Of a DNA stretch of 64,000 bases, positions 10,351-60,058 are shown piece after piece. The notes beneath the pieces were generated by a model. That model worked only from the letters and a program-made list of their open reading frames with translations, searched no databases and had not been told where the DNA came from. The stretch is from Candidatus Nomurabacteria bacterium (GTDB taxonomy: Bacteria; Patescibacteriota; Minisyncoccia; Phycocordibacterales; UBA918), in NCBI GenBank assembly GCA_023898525.1, contig CP060227.1:823662-887661 (forward strand), given 5' to 3'. Both the position numbers and the translations under genes were made by a program. Each line of letters starts with the position of its first letter. Position 1 is the first letter of the stretch.

Positions 10351-10391
10351 TTCAGGTCCGGCATTTGTGCTAATTAATTTGTATAGAAATA

Positions 10392-10445
10392 GACCTTAAA
10401 GAGGAGCGGCTAGCGACGGGAAAGGTCTACCCTTGGTTGTTTTAC
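10392..10445 (+). repeat. Conserved about 54-nt element, copy 1 (a second copy lies at 29745-29797)
   Basis: gaccttaaagaggagcggctagcgacgggaaaggtctacccttggttgttttac is near-identical to the second locus. It contains a GGAGG-like motif and a 6-7 bp stem. Confidence 0.5.
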
Positions 10446-10567
10446 TTGATTTTAATTAGCATAGGTCCCAGACATGTCATTGCTTTTTAGTAAAAAATGA
10501 TGTATTGTGTTGACTTAAGGCTAATCACGTTAGTCTTTTTAATTTAGAGTACTGGAATAAATACGTA

Positions 10568-10885
10568 GCGGGGTGAGAAAGTGTCAAAACACTTTCGCAA
10601 GACCTTGCCTAGTATTTCTTGAGGCTACGAAAAGAAATACTGACAAGGTGTACAGATCCTGTAAGGATGAGGAGAGGAAACTTTTTCGTTCCAGATAAGG
10701 TAAAAATAAATACATAGCGTGACTAAGAGAGGTATCGAGCGAGAGAATTATATAGCTCTCATAACCTCCCTGGAGAACGCTTTTGTTTGAGGAGAGGTAA
10801 AAATAAATACATAGCGGGGTAGAGGAGAGGTACCTCGGGAGGCTCATAACCTCCAGACCCCGGTTCGATTCCGGGCCCCGCAACA
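10568..10885 (+). ncRNA. tRNA-like / candidate structured RNA locus: three imperfect tandem repeats (R1-R3) ending in a T-arm plus acceptor. tmRNA is an alternative reading, less well supported
   Basis: AATAAATAC(A/G)TAGCG(G/T)G occurs three times (about 10556, 10704, 10802). CTCATAACCTCC occurs twice. The 3' end is CCCCGGTTCGATTCCGGGCCCCGCA. Strong internal hairpins are present. Confidence 0.35.
10815..10882 (+). ncRNA. Degenerate tRNA-like element with a CAU (Met-type) anticodon loop
   Basis: Acceptor GCGGGG/CCCCGC. D-like stem GAGG/CCTC. Anticodon stem GGAGG/CCTCC with loop CTCATAA. T-arm CCCGG-TTCGATT-CCGGG. It is one nt short at positions 8-9 and has a 6-bp acceptor stem. Confidence 0.4.
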
Positions 10886-10936
10886 CTAAGAAAAAACCAA
10901 GAGTATAACTCTTGGTTTTTTCTTAGTGTTGCGGGG
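10876..10936 (+). terminator. Long (about 27-bp stem) hairpin/terminator that overlaps the 3' acceptor strand of the tRNA-like element
   Basis: ccccgcaacactaagaaaaaaccaagagtataactcttggttttttcttagtgttgcgggg is a perfect inverted repeat with an inner T-run. Confidence 0.6.
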
Positions 10937-11040
10937 CGATAAAACTTTTGCTTAGCATTAAAAAATGTGTCCAGGTGAAAAAAATAATTTTAACTTTGCT
11001 ATACTTTAACTCATTATAGACTAAATTAATTGTTGCTATT

Positions 11041-22091: not shown

Positions 22092-22421
22092 GCGGTGGTA
22101 GCTCAACTGGTTAGAGCACCCGCCTGTAGACGTGCAGCTTTTTGTGCGAAAGCCAAATTGAAACTCTCCGGGATATCGGTGAAGGCTAAGTCTTCTTGAA
22201 GATATGCGAATACCGAGGGAACCCTATACACAAAAAAACATAGTATAGGGGCTCCGTAGAGACTAGATACCGGGGTACCTAAACCCAGCACTGCTTTTAA
22301 CTCTAAATATATTTAAAGTTAAAAGCAGTGCTGGACATGGTAAAGATATAGTCCACGCCTTTGTGAAAACATTGGAAGAAGTGCACGCGGGAGGTTGCGG
22401 GTTCGAGTCCCGTCTACCGCG
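22092..22421 (+). tRNA. tRNA-Asp (anticodon GTC) interrupted by a 256-nt group I intron in the anticodon loop (between positions 35 and 36)
   Basis: 5' exon GCGGTGGTAGCTCAACTGGTTAGAGCACCCGCCTGT. 3' exon CACGCGGGAGGTTGCGGGTTCGAGTCCCGTCTACCGCG. The T-arm and G73 are Asp-like (E. coli tRNA-Asp has the identical T-arm GCGGGTTCGAGTCCCGT). The spliced anticodon loop is CTGTCAC. Confidence 0.75.
22128..22383 (+). ncRNA. Group I self-splicing intron (256 nt) within tRNA-Asp
   Basis: The exon ends in U, paired to an intron G (P1: exon CTGT / intron GCAG). The intron ends in G. S element AAGATATAGTCC at 22343-22354. R/P7 GACTAGATACCGGGG at 22261-22275. GGACATGG P6-like. AAATTG P4-like. P10 CGTG:CACG. 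Confidence 0.75.
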
Positions 22422-22435
22422 CAGTTAGGTAAAAA

Positions 22436-29281: not shown

Positions 29282-29707
29282 ATGGCAAGTTGGGCGGTCT
29301 ATGCACTATTGGCGGCTTTCTTTGCTTCACTAGTAGCAATTTTTGGTAAGCTGGGCGTAAAGGATGTTGATAGTAACTTAGCGGTGGCAATTCGGACTGT
29401 CATTATTTTGTTTTTTGCTTGGGGGATTGTCTTGTTGCAGGGTAATGCGGGAGATATGTTCAAGATTTCCAAATACTCCATGACTTTTATTGTGCTCTCC
29501 GCTTTGGCGACTGGTGCTTCATGGATGTTCTACTATAAGGCCTTGCAACTCGGCGAGGTATCTAAGGTGGCACCGATTGATAAGTTTAGTATTGCGCTGA
29601 CTATTCTTATGGCATTTATCATACTGGGTGAGAAGCCAACTTTTGGTACGGTACTCGGTGGGCTTTTGGTAACAGCCGGGGTGTTTGTCACAATTTATGT
29701 GAAGTAG
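29282..29707 (+). CDS. EamA-like small membrane transporter (DMT superfamily, 4 TM)
   Basis: 141 aa with four hydrophobic helices and an EamA-like pattern. Confidence 0.55.
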   Translation: MASWAVYALLAAFFASLVAIFGKLGVKDVDSNLAVAIRTVIILFFAWGIVLLQGNAGDMFKISKYSMTFIVLSALATGASWMFYYKALQLGEVSKVAPIDKFSIALTILMAFIILGEKPTFGTVLGGLLVTAGVFVTIYVK

Positions 29708-29744
29708 ACATAAAATCAATCAAAACAAAAAATAACAGAGGTGC

Positions 29745-29797
29745 GACCTTAAGGAGGAGCTTGTGACGGAAAAGGTTGTTCCTTGGTTATTGTTTTA
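29745..29797 (+). repeat. Conserved about 54-nt element, copy 2 (copy 1 lies at 10392-10445)
   Basis: gaccttaaggaggagcttgtgacggaaaaggttgttccttggttattgtttta. Confidence 0.5.
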
Positions 29798-29869
29798 TAC
29801 CTAATAAGTTGGTGATGAATTAAGATGATTTCTTTACTTCAAATTTGTCTTTAAATATGGTAGATTTAT

Positions 29870-29894
29870 GACGCGCGGCCAAAGGCCGCGCGTC
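29870..29894 (+). other. GC-rich stem-loop without a U-tract
   Basis: GACGCGCGGCCAAAGGCCGCGCGTC. Confidence 0.5.
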
Positions 29895-29909
29895 TACTAA
29901 AACAAAAAT

Positions 29910-29931
29910 TGCCGGATCGTCTAATGGTAAG
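29910..29931 (+). other. Partial duplicate of the 5' 22 nt of tRNA-Gln
   Basis: TGCCGGATCGTCTAATGGTAAG versus the tRNA 5' end TGCCAGATCGTCTAATGGTAGG. Confidence 0.5.
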
Positions 29932-29997
29932 CAGAGCTTTCTTTCATCATTCGCTCGGACACAGAAGAGGTATTTTGTACAAATTTATATTCACCGC

Positions 29998-30068
29998 TGC
30001 CAGATCGTCTAATGGTAGGACTCCAGGTTTTGGTCCTGGCTATCTAGGTTCGAGTCCTAGTCTGGCAG
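29998..30068 (+). tRNA. tRNA-Gln (anticodon TTG)
   Basis: TGCCAGA-TC-GTCT-AATGGTA-GGAC-T-CCAGG-TTTTGGT-CCTGG-CTAT-CTAGG-TTCGAGT-CCTAG-TCTGGCA-G. U1-A72 and G73 are Gln-type. Confidence 0.8.
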
Positions 30069-30125
30069 CGGTGGATGGAAATACAAAATACCTCTTTTGT
30101 GTCTCTCGCTCATTCGAAAGTAGGT

Positions 30126-30304
30126 AAAACAATCTGGGAGATTGTTTTACGGGTTTTGCACCACAAGGGTATTTCTATTTTAATAGTCGTTTCACTCATT
30201 TAAAATAAGTCCACCACAAGGGTATTTCTATTTTCATGGTCGCTATCGCTTTCTGAAAATTAGGTCGTCCATGGTATTTAGGCTGAGACAGTCTGGGAGA
30301 CTGT
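30126..30304 (+). repeat. Structured repeat region downstream of tRNA-Gln: two 31-nt direct repeats plus twin CTGGGAG-loop hairpins
   Basis: DR CACCACAAGGGTATTTCTATTTT(A/C)AT(A/G)GTCG at 30159-30189 and 30212-30242. Hairpins AAAACAATCTGGGAGATTGTTTT (30126-30148) and ACAGTCTGGGAGACTGT (30288-30304), with an A-T to G-C change that keeps the stem paired. Confidence 0.5.
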
Positions 30305-30418
30305 TGAAGAAGGTTGTCTAGTATTTTATGACAAAAAAAGGAAATAAAATACTGACAAACCAGTCTGTACTGATGCTGTAAGGATCGGGTCTTATTCAGA
30401 CAGTCAATTAGTGATAGT

Positions 30419-30928
30419 ATGAGATACTTTATGAGAAAAATTTTTGAAAAACTTAAAAATGCATACAACTCATTAGCTTCAAAATTGAAAAATAAGGGTG
30501 AAGATTCAAATTTCAGAGGTTCAGATCATCTGTTTAATTCAGGTGATATTTTTACAGCCAAAAATGATGAGCTAATGGATGCTTTAAGAGAGTTAGGGAT
30601 AGGGCATGTTCCCAATGATATAGTCAGGCATCGACAAATAATTCGAGCGCTTACTATTGATAGCATTATCAATAGAAGGCATGTGGAGGCTCTCGAAAAG
30701 AAAAATACACAGCTGGCAGCCTTCAATATCATTCTTTCTATCGCGGTAATCCTTTTAACTGCTTGGGGACTTTTTATTTCACCACAAGCAAAGGTAGCCC
30801 AAAATGAAGTTGATAATTTTCAGCGTCAAGCACAGTCTTTTTGTGAAAATAATCCAAGAGGTTATTGGTCAATGTTGGGAGGGGGAGAAAAGGGTTGTGT
30901 TGAGATACTAGAAATGCTTGCTGAATAG
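30419..30928 (+). CDS. Hypothetical protein with a C-terminal TM helix
   Basis: 169-aa ORF. Confidence 0.45.
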   Translation: MRYFMRKIFEKLKNAYNSLASKLKNKGEDSNFRGSDHLFNSGDIFTAKNDELMDALRELGIGHVPNDIVRHRQIIRALTIDSIINRRHVEALEKKNTQLAAFNIILSIAVILLTAWGLFISPQAKVAQNEVDNFQRQAQSFCENNPRGYWSMLGGGEKGCVEILEMLAE

Positions 30929-31663: not shown

Positions 31664-31877
31664 CCATGAGATGTACCTTTTGTAGCAATACAATAGAAGT
31701 TGAGTTGTATACAGGTGATGTTGCTCATAAAAAATGTCAAACTAAAAATATGGTCACAGATAAATAGGGATAACTGGGGTCAGTATCCATTTCCAACCAA
31801 CATCCTCCCAATTAACACAACCACCCATGCACCACCACATGAAACTACAACCAGACATGTTTAGATTCCATCTTTAC

Positions 31878-32420
31878 CCCGCATGCTTGTCATCGGGGGA
31901 AACATTGTCATACTAAACAGTAATGAAAGGTAAACCACAACATATCAAAAAACCACACAACAAAACTCTGTTCATCTATCATCTGGTATGCCCAGTAAAA
32001 TACAGAAGAGATGTATTTACACCACCAATATCAAAAACATTTAAAAACTTATGTTTGGAATTTGGTCCAGCTTACGAGATATACTTTCTTGAAATAGGAA
32101 TAGACGAAGATCATGTACACTTTTTAATACAAACAATTCCAAACATACGTTTCTCTGATACGGTAAAGAAAATAAAAAGCATCACCTCCAATCATCTCTT
32201 TAAAATCCACCCTGAACTAAAAATAAAACTCTGGGGAGGAAAGTTCTGGACTGAAGGTTATTATGCAAATACAGTGGGTAATGCCAGTATGGATATTATT
32301 ACCAATTACGTTAAAAACCAAGGTTATCCCGAATACCAACAGCTACACTCCGCACCAGTTCAGACTTCACTGTTTACTACCTAGTCCAACGCCGATACCC
32401 CGTATGCTTGTCATCGGGGT
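31878..32420 (+). mobile_element. IS200/IS605-family insertion sequence (543 bp) with subterminal hairpins, inserted 3' of TTAC
   Basis: Left hairpin CCCCGCATGCTTGTCATCGGGG (31877-31898). Right hairpin CCCCGTATGCTTGTCATCGGGG (32398-32419). It carries a Y1 tnpA gene. The flanking sequence is ...CTTTAC|. Confidence 0.7.
31923..32384 (+). CDS. IS200/IS605 family transposase TnpA (Y1 HUH)
   Basis: HUH motif DHVHFLIQ. Catalytic Tyr region GYYANTVG. 153 aa. Confidence 0.85.
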   Translation: MKGKPQHIKKPHNKTLFIYHLVCPVKYRRDVFTPPISKTFKNLCLEFGPAYEIYFLEIGIDEDHVHFLIQTIPNIRFSDTVKKIKSITSNHLFKIHPELKIKLWGGKFWTEGYYANTVGNASMDIITNYVKNQGYPEYQQLHSAPVQTSLFTT

Positions 32421-32885
32421 AGTTCATTAGTTTGTTCTGGAACCGAGAAAATTGAAATTCGTTTGCTTGATGAAAAGCGTCAGCAAATTTCCGTGGGTGA
32501 CACTATCACTTTTACAAACGCAGATGAAAAGTCGGACACTGTTTTGGTAAGGGTGGTTGATTTGGTTAGATTCGATACCTTCAAAGATTTGTGTGAAGCT
32601 CATGACCCGATTCTCTATGGGTCTAAAAATACAGAAGAATACCATTTGATGTACAAATACTATTCTGAAGCAGAAGAACAAAAGTATGGTGTACTGGCAA
32701 TACATTTGCAAATAATTTAATACGTGCCGCTAATAATTGTAATTTTGTTATACTAAAACCATGAACAAAGCCGAGAATTCTGGGGTAAGCACGCTCTGGT
32801 ATGGGGGAATCAAGAGATTATCTTTGGTACTGAGACTAGTAACTGTCCGTGGCAATGATTGCTGTAAATATTTCTTTGAGGTTAT

Positions 32886-42530: not shown

Positions 42531-44372
42531 ATGAAAATAATAAAATTACTGTTTGACAGAGAACATTGGGTGGAGATCGCAGCGATAGTGGTGGTAGGTT
42601 TGGCTAGTTTACTTTTTTCTCTGGAGATCATATCAATACCAATTTTGGTAGCGGCTATTTTGCTCGGTGCTTACCCAATTGCTAAGGAAGCTCTTCTAGA
42701 CCTGTTTACTAAGAAAAAAATTGGCACCGAGTTATTTATTACGGTAGCGGTGGCGGTCGCTCTCTTGGGTGGGGAGTATCTGGCTGGGGCTGTGGTCTTG
42801 ATGATTATTTTGATCGCTGAATACATTGCTAGTGTTTCGGGAGAAAGAGCTAGGGCGTCAATCCGTGACTTAATTGGTACAGTACCAAAAACCGCTATTA
42901 TTAAATGTGGTGACAAACAACTGACAGTTGACTTAGCTTCGATAAAAATTGACGACATAGTTTTGGTAAGGGCTGGCGATAAGATACCGGTTGATGGGGT
43001 GGTGGTGGCTGGTAACGGGTTTGCTAATCAAGCACCGATTACCGGTGAGAGTTTACCGCAGGGTAAGATGGTTGGTAGCGATGTTTATGCTGGTACCATA
43101 TTGGAGTCTGGCGCTCTTGATATCAGAGTCACTAAGCTAACGGAAGACACGGTTTTCTCGAGAATCATTGCTCTGGTTGAGGAGGCGGAAAGTCGGGAGC
43201 CGTTGATTCAGAAGTTTACTGATCGGGTAGCGACTTGGTTGATTCCAATCGCCTTTGTATTTGTGGCGGTGGTCTATTATTACACTCAAGATATAAAGTT
43301 GATTATCGCGCTGTTGATCTTTACTTCTCCGGCTGAGCTTGGACTAGCTACACCTTTGGTGACTATATCGGCGGTGGCCAGAGCGGCGCGCGAGGGTATA
43401 TTAGTAAAAGGTGGCTTGTATCTTGAAGCTTTGGCTCGGGCTGACACTTTCGTATTTGATAAAACTGGTACTTTGACACTGGGGGACTTGAAGGTAGATA
43501 AGATTCGGGTGTTTGACCGAAATTTTGATGAAAGGGAGGTATTGTCTATTGCTGCAGCGGCCGATAGTCGGTCTGGTCATCCTTTGGCCAAGACTATTGT
43601 TGAGTACGCTAAGGAGATAAATGTTTCGCATATTGCACCGACTGAGTTCGCGGTTTTGGATGGTCGAGGCGTAAAAGCAACTGTTGGCGGTAAACAGGTT
43701 TTGGTTGGAAATGTGACTTTAATGCATGAGAATTCTGTAGATCTGCCGAGTGACGTTAAAATTACTGATGACACGACTGTCTACGTGGCAATGGAGGGTA
43801 AATTGGTCGGGGCTATTTTAATTAGTAGTATTGTCAGGCCGGGAGCAAGAGCGGCTATCCAATCATTAAAAGCTGGCGGGGTGAAAAAAGTGATGATGCT
43901 AACCGGAGACAATGAGGAAGCGGCTAAGAAGATAGCCTCTCAACTAGCGATTGATGAGGTAAGAGCTGATTTATTACCGGAAGATAAAATTAAGATCGTA
44001 GACCAATTGCAGTCCGAAGGTCGGCTGGTAGCGATGGTGGGTGACGGTGTCAATGACGCACCGGCGCTAGCGGCTGCTAGTGTGGGGGTGGCTATGGGTT
44101 CAGTCGGGACCGGGTCAGCGATGGAGGCCGCCGATATAGTCTTAGTAAATGATGATCTGGAGAAACTGGCTCACGCTCGAGCAATCAGTAGCCGGGCTTA
44201 TAAAACAATTCGAGAAAACATTTTTGTTGGAGTTGGAGTGGTGCATGTGGTGGGAATTATTCTGGTTTTAACTCATGTGATCGGTCCGATTCAGGCGGCA
44301 ATTATTCACTTGGTGCCTGATACTTTAGTGTTTTTGAATTCTATTAAGTTACTGAAAGTTAAAATTTACTAA
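42531..44372 (+). CDS. P1B-type heavy-metal P-type ATPase with variant TM6 motif SPA (no N-terminal metal-binding domain)
   Basis: DKTGTLT, GDGVNDAPAL and TGES motifs. TM6 reads FTSPAELGLATP instead of CPC. Confidence 0.75.
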   Translation: MKIIKLLFDREHWVEIAAIVVVGLASLLFSLEIISIPILVAAILLGAYPIAKEALLDLFTKKKIGTELFITVAVAVALLGGEYLAGAVVLMIILIAEYIASVSGERARASIRDLIGTVPKTAIIKCGDKQLTVDLASIKIDDIVLVRAGDKIPVDGVVVAGNGFANQAPITGESLPQGKMVGSDVYAGTILESGALDIRVTKLTEDTVFSRIIALVEEAESREPLIQKFTDRVATWLIPIAFVFVAVVYYYTQDIKLIIALLIFTSPAELGLATPLVTISAVARAAREGILVKGGLYLEALARADTFVFDKTGTLTLGDLKVDKIRVFDRNFDEREVLSIAAAADSRSGHPLAKTIVEYAKEINVSHIAPTEFAVLDGRGVKATVGGKQVLVGNVTLMHENSVDLPSDVKITDDTTVYVAMEGKLVGAILISSIVRPGARAAIQSLKAGGVKKVMMLTGDNEEAAKKIASQLAIDEVRADLLPEDKIKIVDQLQSEGRLVAMVGDGVNDAPALAAASVGVAMGSVGTGSAMEAADIVLVNDDLEKLAHARAISSRAYKTIRENIFVGVGVVHVVGIILVLTHVIGPIQAAIIHLVPDTLVFLNSIKLLKVKIY

Positions 44373-45284: not shown

Positions 45285-47294
45285 ATGGAGCACGTACATC
45301 ATAGCGGGCATGGACATGGTTCTGGAACGGGTCATGGTTCTGCCGAGATTTTTTTGAAACGATTTTGGGTCGTAACTTTTTTGTTGATTCCACTGGTGTT
45401 CGCTAACCAGATGGTAATGCAGGCAGTAGGGCTTCAGGCTCATACTCTAAGTAAGTGGTTTGGTTTTTTTATTGCGACGGTGATATTTGGCTTTGCCTTA
45501 GTTTTTTTTGAACACGCTTGGCACGAGATAAAGGCTAAGCAGTACGGCATGATGACGTTGGTGTCGCTGGCGGTGGGAGCTGGGTATTTATTTTCGGTAG
45601 TGGCGACTTTTGTGTCAACACTTGAGGCTGATTTTTATTTAGAAATATCAACGCTTATTTGGGTGCTGATGTTTGGTCACTACCTGGAAGCCAGGTCGGG
45701 AGCGGCGGCGGGTAATGCTTTGTCAGAAGTAGCGAAGCTTCTGCCTAAAAAGGCGCATCGTTTGATTGGTGATAGAGAGGAGGAGATTGAGATAAGTGAG
45801 CTCAAGGTTGATGATTTGGTCCTGGTAAAACCGGGTGAAAAAATTCCAGCTGACGGTGTGGTTTCGTTGGGTGTAGCAAATGTTAACGAAGCTCTAATTA
45901 GTGGTGAGTCAAAGCCGTTGTCAAAAAAGGCTGGAGACGAAGTGGTGGCTGGGTCTATTTGTCTTGATGGTTCTTTAACTATCCGTCTAACTAGGGTCGG
46001 TGAACATTCAACTATCGGTCAGATTAAAAATTTGATCGCTAAGGCAGAAATGACTAAGCCTAAGTCACAACGGCTGGCCGACAAAGCGGCGGCAATTTTG
46101 ACCGCGGTGGCGGCTATTACTGCACTTTTGACTGTTTTGGTGTGGTCGCTAATTTTAGGTGAGACTTTTGTTTTCTCAATTACACTCGCTATTACAGTTT
46201 TGGTGATTGCGTGTCCACATGCGCTTGGGTTGGCGATACCAACAGTCACTACCATAACCACCTCAATTGCAATTAAAAGCGGCTTTTTTATCAAAAATCT
46301 AGCCAAGCTAGAAGTACTGAAAAAGGTCAACTATGTTGTGTTTGATAAGACGGGTACTCTAACGACTGGAGAATTTGGTGTAAATGAAGTGGTGGCGGTT
46401 GGTGACGAAGTTGAAGCTAATGTATTAGCAGTAGCGGCATCGTTAGAACAACATTCATCGCATATTATCGGTCAGTCAATAGTAGCAGATGCAAAAAATA
46501 AGAACTTGCAGCTTCATCAAATTTTGAATTTCAAAAATATCGCCGGTAAGGGTGTACAAGCTGAGATAGATGAGGAGATATACGTGGTCGGTAACGTGGC
46601 TATGATGGAATCTTTTGGCGTCGAAATTGAAACTGTGAAAGAAAAATATATAGAATTATCGAGCAAAGGTAAGACGGTGGTGTTTGTGGCTAAACAAAAA
46701 AAGATAATCGGTCTTATCGTCTTGTCTGACGCTATTAAAAAAGAAGCTTTTCTGGCGGTTGAACGTTTACACGGTTTGGGTGTGAAGGTGGCTATGTTGA
46801 CTGGCGATAATCAAGCGGTAGCCAAAGCCGTAGCTGAAGAGTTAAAAATTGATACGTACTTCGCCGAAGTTTTGCCGGAAGATAAATACCAGCATATTAA
46901 GTCTCTGCAAGAAAGAGGTGGAGTAGTGGTGATGGTGGGTGATGGTGTAAACGACGCTCCGGCTTTGACTCAGTCTGATGTCGGAGTGGCAATCGGCGCT
47001 GGGACAGATGTGGCGGTGGAGGCTGGAGATGTGGTGTTGACCCGCAACAATCCGGAGGATGTGGCTCGACTCATAATCTTGGCCAAAAAAGTTTATGTAA
47101 AAATGGTACAGAATTTAGTGTGGGCACTTGGTTACAATATCATTGCTATTCCAGCGGCGGCTGGTGTGTTCGCTAGTCAATTTTTCTTTGGCGGTTTTCT
47201 TTTAAGACCGGAAATCGGTGCTTTAATAATGAGTCTCTCGACAGTAATAGTTGTAGCTAATGCTCTATTGTTGAAGCGAGTCAATCTTAAGTAG
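45285..47294 (+). CDS. CopB-type (P1B-3) copper-transporting P-type ATPase with a His-rich N-terminus
   Basis: N-terminus MEHVHHSGHGHGSGTGHGS. CPH motif in TM6 (IACPHALGLAIP). DKTGTLT. GDGVNDAPAL. Confidence 0.8.
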   Translation: MEHVHHSGHGHGSGTGHGSAEIFLKRFWVVTFLLIPLVFANQMVMQAVGLQAHTLSKWFGFFIATVIFGFALVFFEHAWHEIKAKQYGMMTLVSLAVGAGYLFSVVATFVSTLEADFYLEISTLIWVLMFGHYLEARSGAAAGNALSEVAKLLPKKAHRLIGDREEEIEISELKVDDLVLVKPGEKIPADGVVSLGVANVNEALISGESKPLSKKAGDEVVAGSICLDGSLTIRLTRVGEHSTIGQIKNLIAKAEMTKPKSQRLADKAAAILTAVAAITALLTVLVWSLILGETFVFSITLAITVLVIACPHALGLAIPTVTTITTSIAIKSGFFIKNLAKLEVLKKVNYVVFDKTGTLTTGEFGVNEVVAVGDEVEANVLAVAASLEQHSSHIIGQSIVADAKNKNLQLHQILNFKNIAGKGVQAEIDEEIYVVGNVAMMESFGVEIETVKEKYIELSSKGKTVVFVAKQKKIIGLIVLSDAIKKEAFLAVERLHGLGVKVAMLTGDNQAVAKAVAEELKIDTYFAEVLPEDKYQHIKSLQERGGVVVMVGDGVNDAPALTQSDVGVAIGAGTDVAVEAGDVVLTRNNPEDVARLIILAKKVYVKMVQNLVWALGYNIIAIPAAAGVFASQFFFGGFLLRPEIGALIMSLSTVIVVANALLLKRVNLK

Positions 47295-59977: not shown

Positions 59978-60041
59978 TGTAGCCTAGCTGGGTGGGAAAA
60001 TCGGGTGTTTTAACACCCGATTTTCCCACCCAGCTAGGCTA
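59978..60041. repeat. 64-nt perfect palindrome (30-bp stem, 4-nt loop) immediately upstream of mgtE
   Basis: GTAGCCTAGCTGGGTGGGAAAATCGGGTGTT-TTAA-CACCCGATTTTCCCACCCAGCTAGGCTAC. Confidence 0.8.
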
Positions 60042-60058
60042 CCTGTTATACTTAACTA

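Follow-up and report, generated by a model that had tools for sequence, protein, structure and literature searches.

We analysed a 64-kb stretch (the window) of contig CP060227.1 from Candidatus Nomurabacteria bacterium (GCA_023898525.1), a host belonging to the Patescibacteria or candidate phyla radiation (CPR), in which a tRNA-Gln gene is surrounded by partial copies of itself, by long complementary arms and by small hairpin-forming repeats. The gene run prfB-ftsE-ftsX-pyrG-EamA precedes this tRNA-Gln locus. An earlier inspection of the DNA letters (the sequence-only reading) had listed the repeats and offered three explanations for them, i.e. a composite non-coding RNA (ncRNA), a tRNA-targeting integration scar or a regulatory leader of the open reading frame (ORF) at 30419. 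Loci fetched for comparison are given by handles (L001 etc.) where they have to be told apart. The locus contains the following features:

29838-29866, forward strand: promoter-like element, TTCAAA, a 17-nt spacer and TGgTAGATT, presumed to be the ancestral tRNA-Gln promoter.
29870-29894, forward strand: GC-rich hairpin, a perfect inverted repeat of 11 bp at the start of the presumed transcript.
29910-29929, forward strand: what is left of the ancestral tRNA-Gln at its 5' end, namely positions 1-20 up to GGTA in the D loop, matching the gene in 19/20 positions.
29930-30119, forward strand: cassette of a 28-nt spacer, a left arm (29958-29997), tRNA-Gln (29998-30069), a right arm (30068-30103) and the 16-nt tail TCTCGCTCATTCGAAA.
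29958-30103, forward strand: leader-trailer helix of ~37 bp continuing the 7-bp acceptor stem, recognised by pairing, fold energy and covariation.
29998-30069, forward strand: functional-looking tRNA-Gln(UUG), found by ARAGORN and by the Rfam tRNA model RF00005 (29998-30068, 59 bits compared to a gathering score of 29).
30120-30158, forward strand: putative decayed middle pieces of a tRNA-Gln, GTAGG (positions 18-22; 30120-30124) and GGGTTTTG (anticodon-loop region; 30151-30158).
30124-30150, forward strand: hairpin 1, an inverted repeat with a 12-bp stem and a GGG loop, a form of the family hairpin HPa.
30159-30242, forward strand: two 31-nt direct repeats, identical in 29/31 positions and 53 nt apart.
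30284-30383, forward strand: unit of a structured family, composed of HPa (hairpin 2, 30288-30304), the helix P2, HPb (30319-30357), the junction TGTACTGA and HPc (30372-30386, loop TGTAA).
30384-30403, forward strand: decayed 3' part of a tRNA-Gln, from the T loop to the acceptor 3' strand, in the slot where the family carries the duplicated tRNA end.

The working tRNA-Gln is identical to that of L001 in 72/72 positions. The promoter-like element is ~90% identical between the window and L001, compared to just ~74% for coding DNA, and its hexamers and spacing are the same in L002, giving an L001/L002 consensus of TTCAAA, 17 nt and TGnTAGNNT; as a promoter consensus scan made no call on this element, its function as promoter is presumed. 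Between it and tRNA-Gln sits the GC-rich hairpin, the structure of which is kept while its sequence differs in the window, L001 (4488-4516) and L002 (4460-4486), so that it may represent a stem-loop conserved at the 5' terminus of the pre-tRNA. Neither this hairpin nor hairpin 1 has the GC-rich stem plus T run of an intrinsic terminator: a terminator scan of 29600-30500 made no call, and hairpin 1 is trailed by just GGGTTTTG without a T run. The region, taken as 561 nt, folds with a z-score of -9.2 against shuffles, and Tandem Repeats Finder made no call at the tRNA-Gln or the tRNA-Met locus. The independently assembled Logan contig L081 is identical to the window up to position 30027, showing that the locus is not an assembly artefact.

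Three loci, L001 (EamA 94% identical), L002 and L004, share the synteny leading to tRNA-Gln. In L001 and L002 an intact tRNA begins, behind the same leader, exactly where the window has the 20-nt partial copy, identifying 29910-29929 as the stranded ancestral 5' end; the working gene lies 88 nt downstream of the ancestral start and has new flanks. The sequence-only reading had noticed a 22-nt copy of the 5' end 66 nt upstream of the gene, which is borne out by the comparison of 29910-29929 with 29998-30017 (19/20, chance expectation 0.01), since a start-to-start spacing of 88 nt leaves this distance. By the RF00005 test the copy at 29910 is not itself a tRNA. The cassette following the remnant is lacking in L001 and L002. 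A counterpart is found in the metagenome contig L111, which aligns to window 29908-30125 with 82.6% identity over 218 nt (E 5e-60) and has the same order of a partial copy ending with GGTA, spacer, left arm, tRNA-Gln and right arm, then TCTCGCTCAYTCG. The junction GGTA/AGCARAGCTT is common to the window cassette and the tRNA-Ile loci L087 and L151, which also carry a 5' remnant and a leader-trailer helix, and a 5' copy lies upstream in 18/135 tRNAs.

The inverted repeat of about 22 bp reported around tRNA-Gln was confirmed at 29958-29979 and 30082-30103 (21/22, one base off the coordinates first given), its length having been understated: a second arm pair (29983-30004 and 30061-30082) joins the acceptor stem, and helix and stem together form ~44 near-continuous bp with one bulge of 3-4 nt. 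The duplex energy of -49.5 kcal/mol is the strongest of the 145 tRNAs in all fetched loci (median -13.8), and only five of these reach -40 kcal/mol or stronger, i.e. the window tRNA-Gln, the tRNA-Gln(CUG) of L172, L088 and L166 (-44 to -47 kcal/mol, with different arm sequences) and L111 (-40.4). Weaker helices near -28 kcal/mol enclose tRNA-Val in L008 and tRNA-Ile in L087 and L151. A comparison of the window with L111 shows 94% of the 43 pairs in the helix to be preserved and compensatory changes in 5 of them, while slid controls show at most 51% paired positions and at most one double change. As several loci have equally strong helices with differing arms, the helix is kept as a structure and is not merely inherited sequence. 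A long near-perfect leader-trailer duplex around a stable RNA is the architecture of an RNase III processing stalk. In rRNA operons such leader-trailer helices are cleaved by RNase III to release the mature RNA, and here as there a long flanking helix encloses a stable RNA with structure rather than sequence being conserved across loci; we know of no description of such a stalk for a bacterial tRNA. By analogy to rRNA processing, the transcript arms around the working tRNA would form a ~44-bp stalk, which would have to be cleaved, RNase III being the most plausible enzyme, for RNase P and 3' trimming to complete the tRNA.

Downstream of the working tRNA, L111 contains collinear tRNA-Gln pieces covering positions 18-32, 33-47 and 48-72 (p < 0.002); a unit lies between them at the anticodon loop and another at the T loop, and complementarity of the T stem persists across the insertion. 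In the window, hairpin 1 parts GTAGG from GGGTTTTG, a placement equal to that of the clear pieces in L111. Hairpins near-identical to hairpin 1 (e.g. GTAAACAGTCTGGGAGACTGTTTAC) open family units in L104, L130, L110 and L009; the unit parts expected past hairpin 1 are not picked up by the family model in the window, and the ~125 nt after GGGTTTTG, including both 31-nt repeats, are unrecognisable. These repeats stand as first reported (30159-30189 and 30212-30242), have no match in viral contigs and are possibly a duplicated fragment of a decayed unit; a CRISPR array was rejected for them, there being two copies only, a 22-nt spacer and no other copy in the window. At the end of the locus, TCGGGTCTTATTCAGACAG (30385-30403) matches tRNA positions 53-71, TCGAGTCCTAGTCTGGCAG, in 13/19 positions. 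Two further repeats of the sequence-only reading hold as well. The twin hairpins at 30124-30150 and 30288-30304 have ACARTCTGGGAGAYTGT in common and their two differences are mirror-image, although the loop may be just GGG rather than CTGGGAG since CT and AG can pair. The block shared with the tRNA-Met locus is found, 10629-10668 being the best non-self match of 30341-30385 in the window (E 0.002), and a second shared block (29745-29791 and 10392-10441, E 1e-4) is collinear with it. Hairpin, 31-nt repeat, arms and 5' copy of the Gln locus have no further copy in the 64-kb window. Comparisons of the inverted-repeat arm with the 31-nt repeat, of spacer X with the downstream spacers and of a 7-nt TCATTCG repeat did not rise above shuffles (p 0.1-0.8), and this direct repeat was dropped as a target duplication (p > 0.1).

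The unit in the Gln locus, hairpin 2 with block B, belongs to a family. A covariance model of the window's two block B copies matched Saccharibacteria loci after tRNA-Ser (L009) and tRNA-Gln (L005), with the exact hairpin ACAGTCTGGGAGACTGT ahead of the unit in L009, and a scan with a 24-base pattern located the family in at least 120 metagenome stretches. Covariance model R3, for which metagenome members alone and no window sequences were used, detects two units in the window and no more, one at 30295-30396 (48.7 bits, E 1.6e-9) and a better-preserved one:

10588-10679, forward strand: unit upstream of tRNA-Met (model R3, 75 bits, E 6e-16), after a copy of the tRNA's leader and first 8 nt (10560-10582).

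The Gln-locus unit departs from the family in that 5 nt are inserted at the junction and HPc contains a G.G mismatch. In the typical order, a complete tRNA is followed by an intrinsic terminator inside a palindrome that includes the tRNA acceptor 3' strand and by an inverted copy of the tRNA's last ~22 nt, broken by HPa, which is often CTGGGAG-looped; then come P2 around the AU-rich hairpin HPb, the invariant junction TGTACTGA and the 5-bp HPc with its TGTAA loop, and last a direct duplicate of the tRNA 3' end from T54, which is exact over at least 21 nt, up to the end of the tRNA, in 21/68 tRNA-adjacent units. For most units a same-strand tRNA ends 90-130 nt upstream, at least 15 isotypes being represented. 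A minority lies upstream of a tRNA after a copy of its leader and first ~8 nt (window tRNA-Met, L132, L135 and L182). In L153, L154 and L139 the unit sits at the 3' end of fusA (EF-G), the last ~20-30 nt of the coding sequence being duplicated behind it, which means that the elements are not strictly tRNA-specific. The good intrinsic terminator between tRNA and unit in typical members argues against the composite transcript that had been suggested for the Gln locus. A regulatory leader of ORF 30419 is not supported either: no downstream gene is conserved among family members, some of which point towards a convergent gene at its 3' end.

The unit folds as a single strand, RNA or DNA, into a junction of several helices, P1, P2/HPb and HPc, behind HPa. 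For P2 there are two forms only, GGTTG/CAACC (59 units) and CCTTG/CAAGG (30 units), which are never crossed, and HPb, HPc and P1 show several Watson-Crick pair types at positions left free by the search pattern. In an alignment of 27 sequences 90.2% of cells pair compared to 75.8% after shuffling, slid controls reaching at most 48%; double-change cells number 106 compared to 35.9 and the covariation score is 0.39 compared to 0.13, values reached by 0/500 shuffles. The junction GAC, UGUACUGA and the loop UGUAA are very strongly conserved, all helices covary, and the arm complementary to the tRNA 3' end follows the T-loop variants. BLAST of a unit found no match in phage and plasmid collections, block B patterns (two) found none in viral contigs, and a scan for the tRNA-Gln 3' half found none in viral and metagenome contigs. 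Rfam 15 gives no non-tRNA match near the gathering score in the window Gln and Met loci or the L009 and L006 members, the sub-threshold matches (miRNA and sRNA models on terminator palindromes and tRNAs) looking like chance hairpin matches, and our literature searches found no description of the family. We therefore regard the units, absent from Rfam and from the searched literature, as a candidate new ncRNA or mobile-element family.

On balance, we lean towards a model in which small structured inserts entered the D, anticodon and T loops of an old tRNA-Gln gene, one of them bringing a replacement tRNA; the best reading of the alignments is that the window presents the L111 design in a further decayed form. 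The older gene would span 29910-30403 and would have been broken at three loops by small non-coding inserts, in an order of events that we propose as follows. A ~190-bp cassette bearing a complete tRNA-Gln between long complementary arms would have entered the D loop after GGTA, its tRNA now serving as the functional copy, for which transcription probably starts from the old promoter (29838-29866), with the old 20 nt stranded upstream. The place near the anticodon loop would hold hairpin 1 and decayed material including the 31-nt repeats, and the single unit still recognisable, hairpin 2 with block B, would occupy the T loop, ahead of the old 3' end in its decayed form.

With moderate confidence we consider the units small non-autonomous site-specific insertion elements rebuilding the gene they enter. 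The tRNA-Gln/flank junction of the window corresponds to an empty site in comparison with L110 and L121, in which the flank GGTGGATGGAAATACGAAATACCTCTTTTGTGTC follows tRNA, terminator, unit and duplicate. L098 has two units with identical cores beside tRNA-Lys and tRNA-Leu, copies are tandem or nested in L119, L132 and L111, and two units per contig occur in L089, L098, L119, L132 and L204 as well as in the window. The empty site, the identical cores, the tandem, nested and decayed copies, the fusA insertions and the interposed terminator together favour insertion, as do the D-loop junction common to Gln and Ile loci and the 5' copies upstream of 18/135 tRNAs. Elements of this kind, ~100-150 nt long, would spare the invaded gene by supplying a replacement end and a terminator; they are bracketed by a direct duplicate of the upstream gene's last ~21 nt and have an inverted copy of it inside. 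Their movement would depend on an enzyme with its gene elsewhere, which perhaps recognises the single strand in its folded state.

Several points weigh against these interpretations. No recombinase or integrase is present among the window ORFs at 30.4-36 kb, and clustering the neighbour genes of 120 loci yielded no recurring protein family except for housekeeping genes. A simple mobile element leaves the match between arm and adjacent tRNA unexplained, and cores could also become identical within a genome through gene conversion among fixed functional modules. That a single strand folds is proved by covariation, which does not tell RNA from DNA, G.T and A.C counts (24 and 18) giving no strand signal. 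The fixed 24-base search pattern undersamples the breadth and variability of the family, and the metagenome contigs carry no taxonomic labels. For the Gln locus itself, the window's own spliced tRNA alignment is marginal (p 0.03-0.06) and the 31-nt repeats are not recognised by the family model.

Part of this evidence has a second explanation, which we judge to be rather unlikely, according to which units and helix are fixed functional RNA modules of CPR tRNA loci and not mobile DNA. Possible roles would be 3'-end processing, quality control, protection of the tRNA end or control of read-through, with the arms co-evolving under the need of the RNA to pair with the tRNA 3' end or to imitate it and with conversion homogenising the cores. 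The conserved junction nucleotides (GAC, UGUACUGA and UGUAA) and covarying helices are what such a module would present; units are nearly always on the tRNA strand, their complementary arm tracks the T-loop variants, none of the 120 loci has an associated transposase or integrase, and core identity in L098 ends at T-loop-like sequences, as conversion tracts would. These points are countered by the strong terminator usually present between tRNA and unit and the lack of room for a promoter, so that co-transcription would be low, by presence varying at orthologous sites (window and L110; L004 or L001 and L172), by units interrupting pseudo-tRNA copies in L111 and L088 or sitting inside the fusA 3' end, and by decayed copies such as that of the window, which suggest dispensability. 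A more far-reaching idea, which we consider doubtful, retains insertion and makes the conserved core (P2/HPb, UGUACUGA, the HPc loop UGUAA and the closing helix copying the target end) the active part of a new kind of element: as a guide-like or catalytic single-stranded RNA or DNA it would steer its own insertion into tRNA loops or gene 3' ends and rebuild the gene. If true, this would be a protein-poor, structure-guided mobility specific to CPR, with tRNA genes nested in the wreck of their predecessors as by-product.

The arms and the 5' duplication might be explained by a single template-switch fold-back during replication, in which the acceptor-stem palindrome nucleated inverted copying of the 3' flank upstream, no mobile element being involved and the other repeats being local duplications of unrelated origin. 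The left arm indeed runs straight into the acceptor 5' strand, i.e. the reverse complement of the 3' strand, where a switch back requires just the 7-nt stem; the remnant's G in place of the gene's A at position 5 would be expected from a copied G.U pair, and long palindromes including a tRNA 3' end are common here (tRNA-Met 10875-10937; L001). We nevertheless hold this to be very unlikely, as neither the 28-nt spacer nor the 16-nt tail is an inverted copy of nearby sequence, the junction GGTA/AGCARAGCTT recurs at tRNA-Ile loci of other organisms and the helix is present at three further tRNA-Gln loci that lack a 5' remnant within 300 nt.

The closest of the three ideas of the sequence-only reading was a tRNA-targeting integration scar, inasmuch as the partial 5' copy lies at the relatives' tRNA-Gln start and duplicated tRNA segments flank the members of the family to which the hairpin/block unit downstream belongs. 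The locus looks more like several small insertions nested in each other, and in the form of a single scar of a large element we give the idea slim odds: a large island (the low-GC region of ~30.4-42 kb, with an IS200-like element) would have entered tRNA-Gln via a tyrosine integrase, leaving the repeats as attL arm sites. L001 synteny does break right after the tRNA, with the downstream genes of L001 mapping to 42 and 47-49 kb of the window, GC content drops to 0.36-0.38 past 30 kb, and duplicated tRNA segments are reportedly a hallmark of integrase-mediated integration (Williams 2002). Yet there is no integrase among the ORFs at 30.4-36 kb and no second tRNA 3'-end copy in the 64 kb, the duplicated piece is the 5' end and lies merely 88 nt off, L111 has the same composite in a different downstream context, and the IS200-like element (31860-32428), which has hairpins different from those of the locus, was inserted separately. 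That the repeats are neutral, strain-specific duplication debris, as their uniqueness within the window and their absence from the closest genome L001 might suggest, is already refuted, the composite being conserved in L111 with compensatory changes and the hairpin-2/block-B unit having at least 120 relatives with covariation.

Further features of the window and its relatives are recorded in their own right. The second block shared by the Gln and Met loci, block A, is a hairpin motif present twice:

29740-29800, forward strand: block A, a ~60-nt hairpin motif, 30-40 nt after a stop codon.
10387-10450, forward strand: paralogue of block A, likewise 30-40 nt after a stop codon.

It has an 8-bp stem with two compensatory pairs, a loop with AARGAGGAGC...GACGG and the tail CCTTGGTT, the copy at 29740 following the EamA stop; block A is lacking at the orthologous L001 site, and a model search of ~800 kb of related loci found no relatives. 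At the tRNA-Met locus (10560-10940, forward strand) three copies of leader and tRNA 5' end start near 10560, 10700 and 10797, one being followed by the high-scoring unit and the middle one being a degenerate pseudo-tRNA. A perfect 30-bp palindrome at 10875-10937 starts inside the tRNA-Met 3' acceptor strand, one of the same kind overlapping the tRNA-Gln end in L001, and a perfect 31-bp palindrome at 59979-60042 (GTAGCCTAGCTGGGTGGGAAAATCGGGTGTT and its reverse complement) lies after a terminator-like hairpin and before the next ORF, with a weak family-model score of 15.8 bits. Among the related loci, L006 is a 402-kb contig labelled as a metagenome-assembled genome (MAG) of Nostocoides sp.; it carries a family unit as well as an EamA of CPR type (80% identity), and probably represents Saccharibacteria DNA that was assigned to an actinobacterial MAG during binning.

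The region of 30-42 kb has a GC content of 0.34-0.39 and many small ORFs without assigned function. Within it, at 31860-32428 (forward strand), lies a minimal IS200-family element of 569 bp with a Y1 transposase of 153 aa and direct hairpin repeats TACCCCGYATGCTTGTCATCGGGG at both ends. At least two copies, which lie on separate contigs of GCA_020632175.1, and an ENA contig match it with 99.5% identity, suggesting recent activity or transfer; GCA_020632175.1 is apparently a different genome from that of the window, since in the two fetched loci only the IS copies match the window. A region rearranged relative to L001 contains a pair of paralogous P-type ATPase genes (42531-44372 and 45285-47294, forward strand) with a shared GDGVNDAP-coding segment.

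CPR bacteria have tiny genomes and tRNA genes that are probably mostly single-copy, and with single-copy genes an invader must avoid killing its host. The locus and its relatives show a recurrent solution to this, in that small structured inserts bring or duplicate the missing tRNA end, and lead to a widespread structured family and to nested tRNA gene replacement in CPR bacteria. They provide testable objects, i.e. a candidate for a new ncRNA or mobile-element family and a tRNA precursor that would need release from a ~44-bp stalk. Partial tRNA copies and pseudo-tRNAs are furthermore a source of mis-annotation and assembly breaks in CPR genomes. If the elements are structure-guided or self-acting, they would represent a new mobility mechanism.

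A number of known identities were tried for the locus and rejected. Group I introns have been described in Patescibacteria tRNA genes (PMC13011429); the Gln locus has no Intron_gpI signal in 29650-30450 and its units are ~100 nt long. Elsewhere in the window, at 22094-22425 (forward strand), a tRNA-Asp(GUC) missed by ARAGORN and by the Rfam gathering score is split after CCTGT in the anticodon loop (35/36) by an intron of ~260 nt (Intron_gpI 22116-22375, 48.8 bits compared to a gathering score of 50, E 1.8e-11), which fits the class described in PMC13011429 and holds a perfect 25-bp palindrome at 22285-22334. Iterons and a T-box or riboswitch leader of ORF 30419 each lack the defining feature, and the same applies to hammerhead or other known ribozymes, tmRNA or permuted tmRNA, retrons and group II intron fragments. 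Palindrome-associated transposable elements (PATEs) of the resident IS200/IS605-type element were rejected because the IS hairpins TACCCCGYATGCTTGTCATCGGGG are unrelated to the unit hairpins ACAGTCTGGGAGACTGT and GANNC-TGTAA-GNNTC, which are mutually unlike.

Comparison with mobile and split elements places the units between several known systems. With MITEs (miniature inverted-repeat transposable elements) and repetitive extragenic palindromes, such as the Correia elements of Neisseria, REP/BIME and the Rickettsia palindromic elements, they share being short, non-coding and multi-copy with hairpin-forming inverted termini, an intergenic position beside terminators and the potential for long RNA hairpins if transcribed. 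They have neither the fixed terminal inverted repeats (TIRs) nor the short target-site duplication of MITEs; instead their paired termini copy the neighbouring gene, and they show a ~21-nt direct repeat and a strict association with tRNA 3' ends. Casposons, Cas1-dependent elements of archaea, target tRNA 3' ends and the 3' end of the EF-2 gene with target duplication, and the units likewise sit at tRNA 3' ends and at the fusA (EF-G) 3' end; the size of casposons (8-20 kb), their Cas1 and polymerase, their own TIRs and their 14-15-bp duplications have no equivalent here. The multi-intron and split tRNA genes of archaea (Thermoproteales, Nanoarchaeum) resemble the locus in having pieces parted by short structured inserts with complementary flanks at several positions, including non-canonical ones. 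In contrast to these, the interrupted copies here resemble decaying pseudogenes beside an intact gene and have no bulge-helix-bulge, and we know of no splicing endonuclease in the bacteria concerned.

The tRNA-targeting integrative elements, i.e. tyrosine-integrase islands and prophages, and the integrase-less cis-mobilizable elements (CIMEs) derived from them come close in logic, as they insert into a tRNA loop (anticodon or T), keep the gene intact by a replacement end, leave the displaced end as a ~20-nt direct repeat and accrete in tandem at one tRNA. A direct repeat of attachment-site (att) type is present in the exact duplicates from T54 of the family as well as in the 19/20 5' repeat and the decayed 3' copy of the window. 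D-loop insertions duplicating the 5' end are unusual for integrases. A kb-size integrase-bearing element was rejected: the inserts measure 66-190 nt, with no recombinase in the neighbouring ORFs and no integrase nearby in the 120 loci. Moreover, one core occurs here beside at least 15 isotypes with matching arms and an inverted target copy inside, and the units keep a covarying structure, which double-stranded att sites do not need. Such a structure is found in folded single-strand sites, i.e. integron attC and the attP(+) of CTX-phi used by XerCD, in which structure is conserved above sequence and one arm is inverted inside. The units differ from these by an additional conserved multi-helix core, and the likeness is one of architecture only. 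In the attC and CTX-phi type the hairpin rebuilds a double-stranded copy of the chromosomal target, and by this analogy a folded attachment site would reproduce the order of target end a, terminator, inverted copy a', core and again a that is seen in the units.

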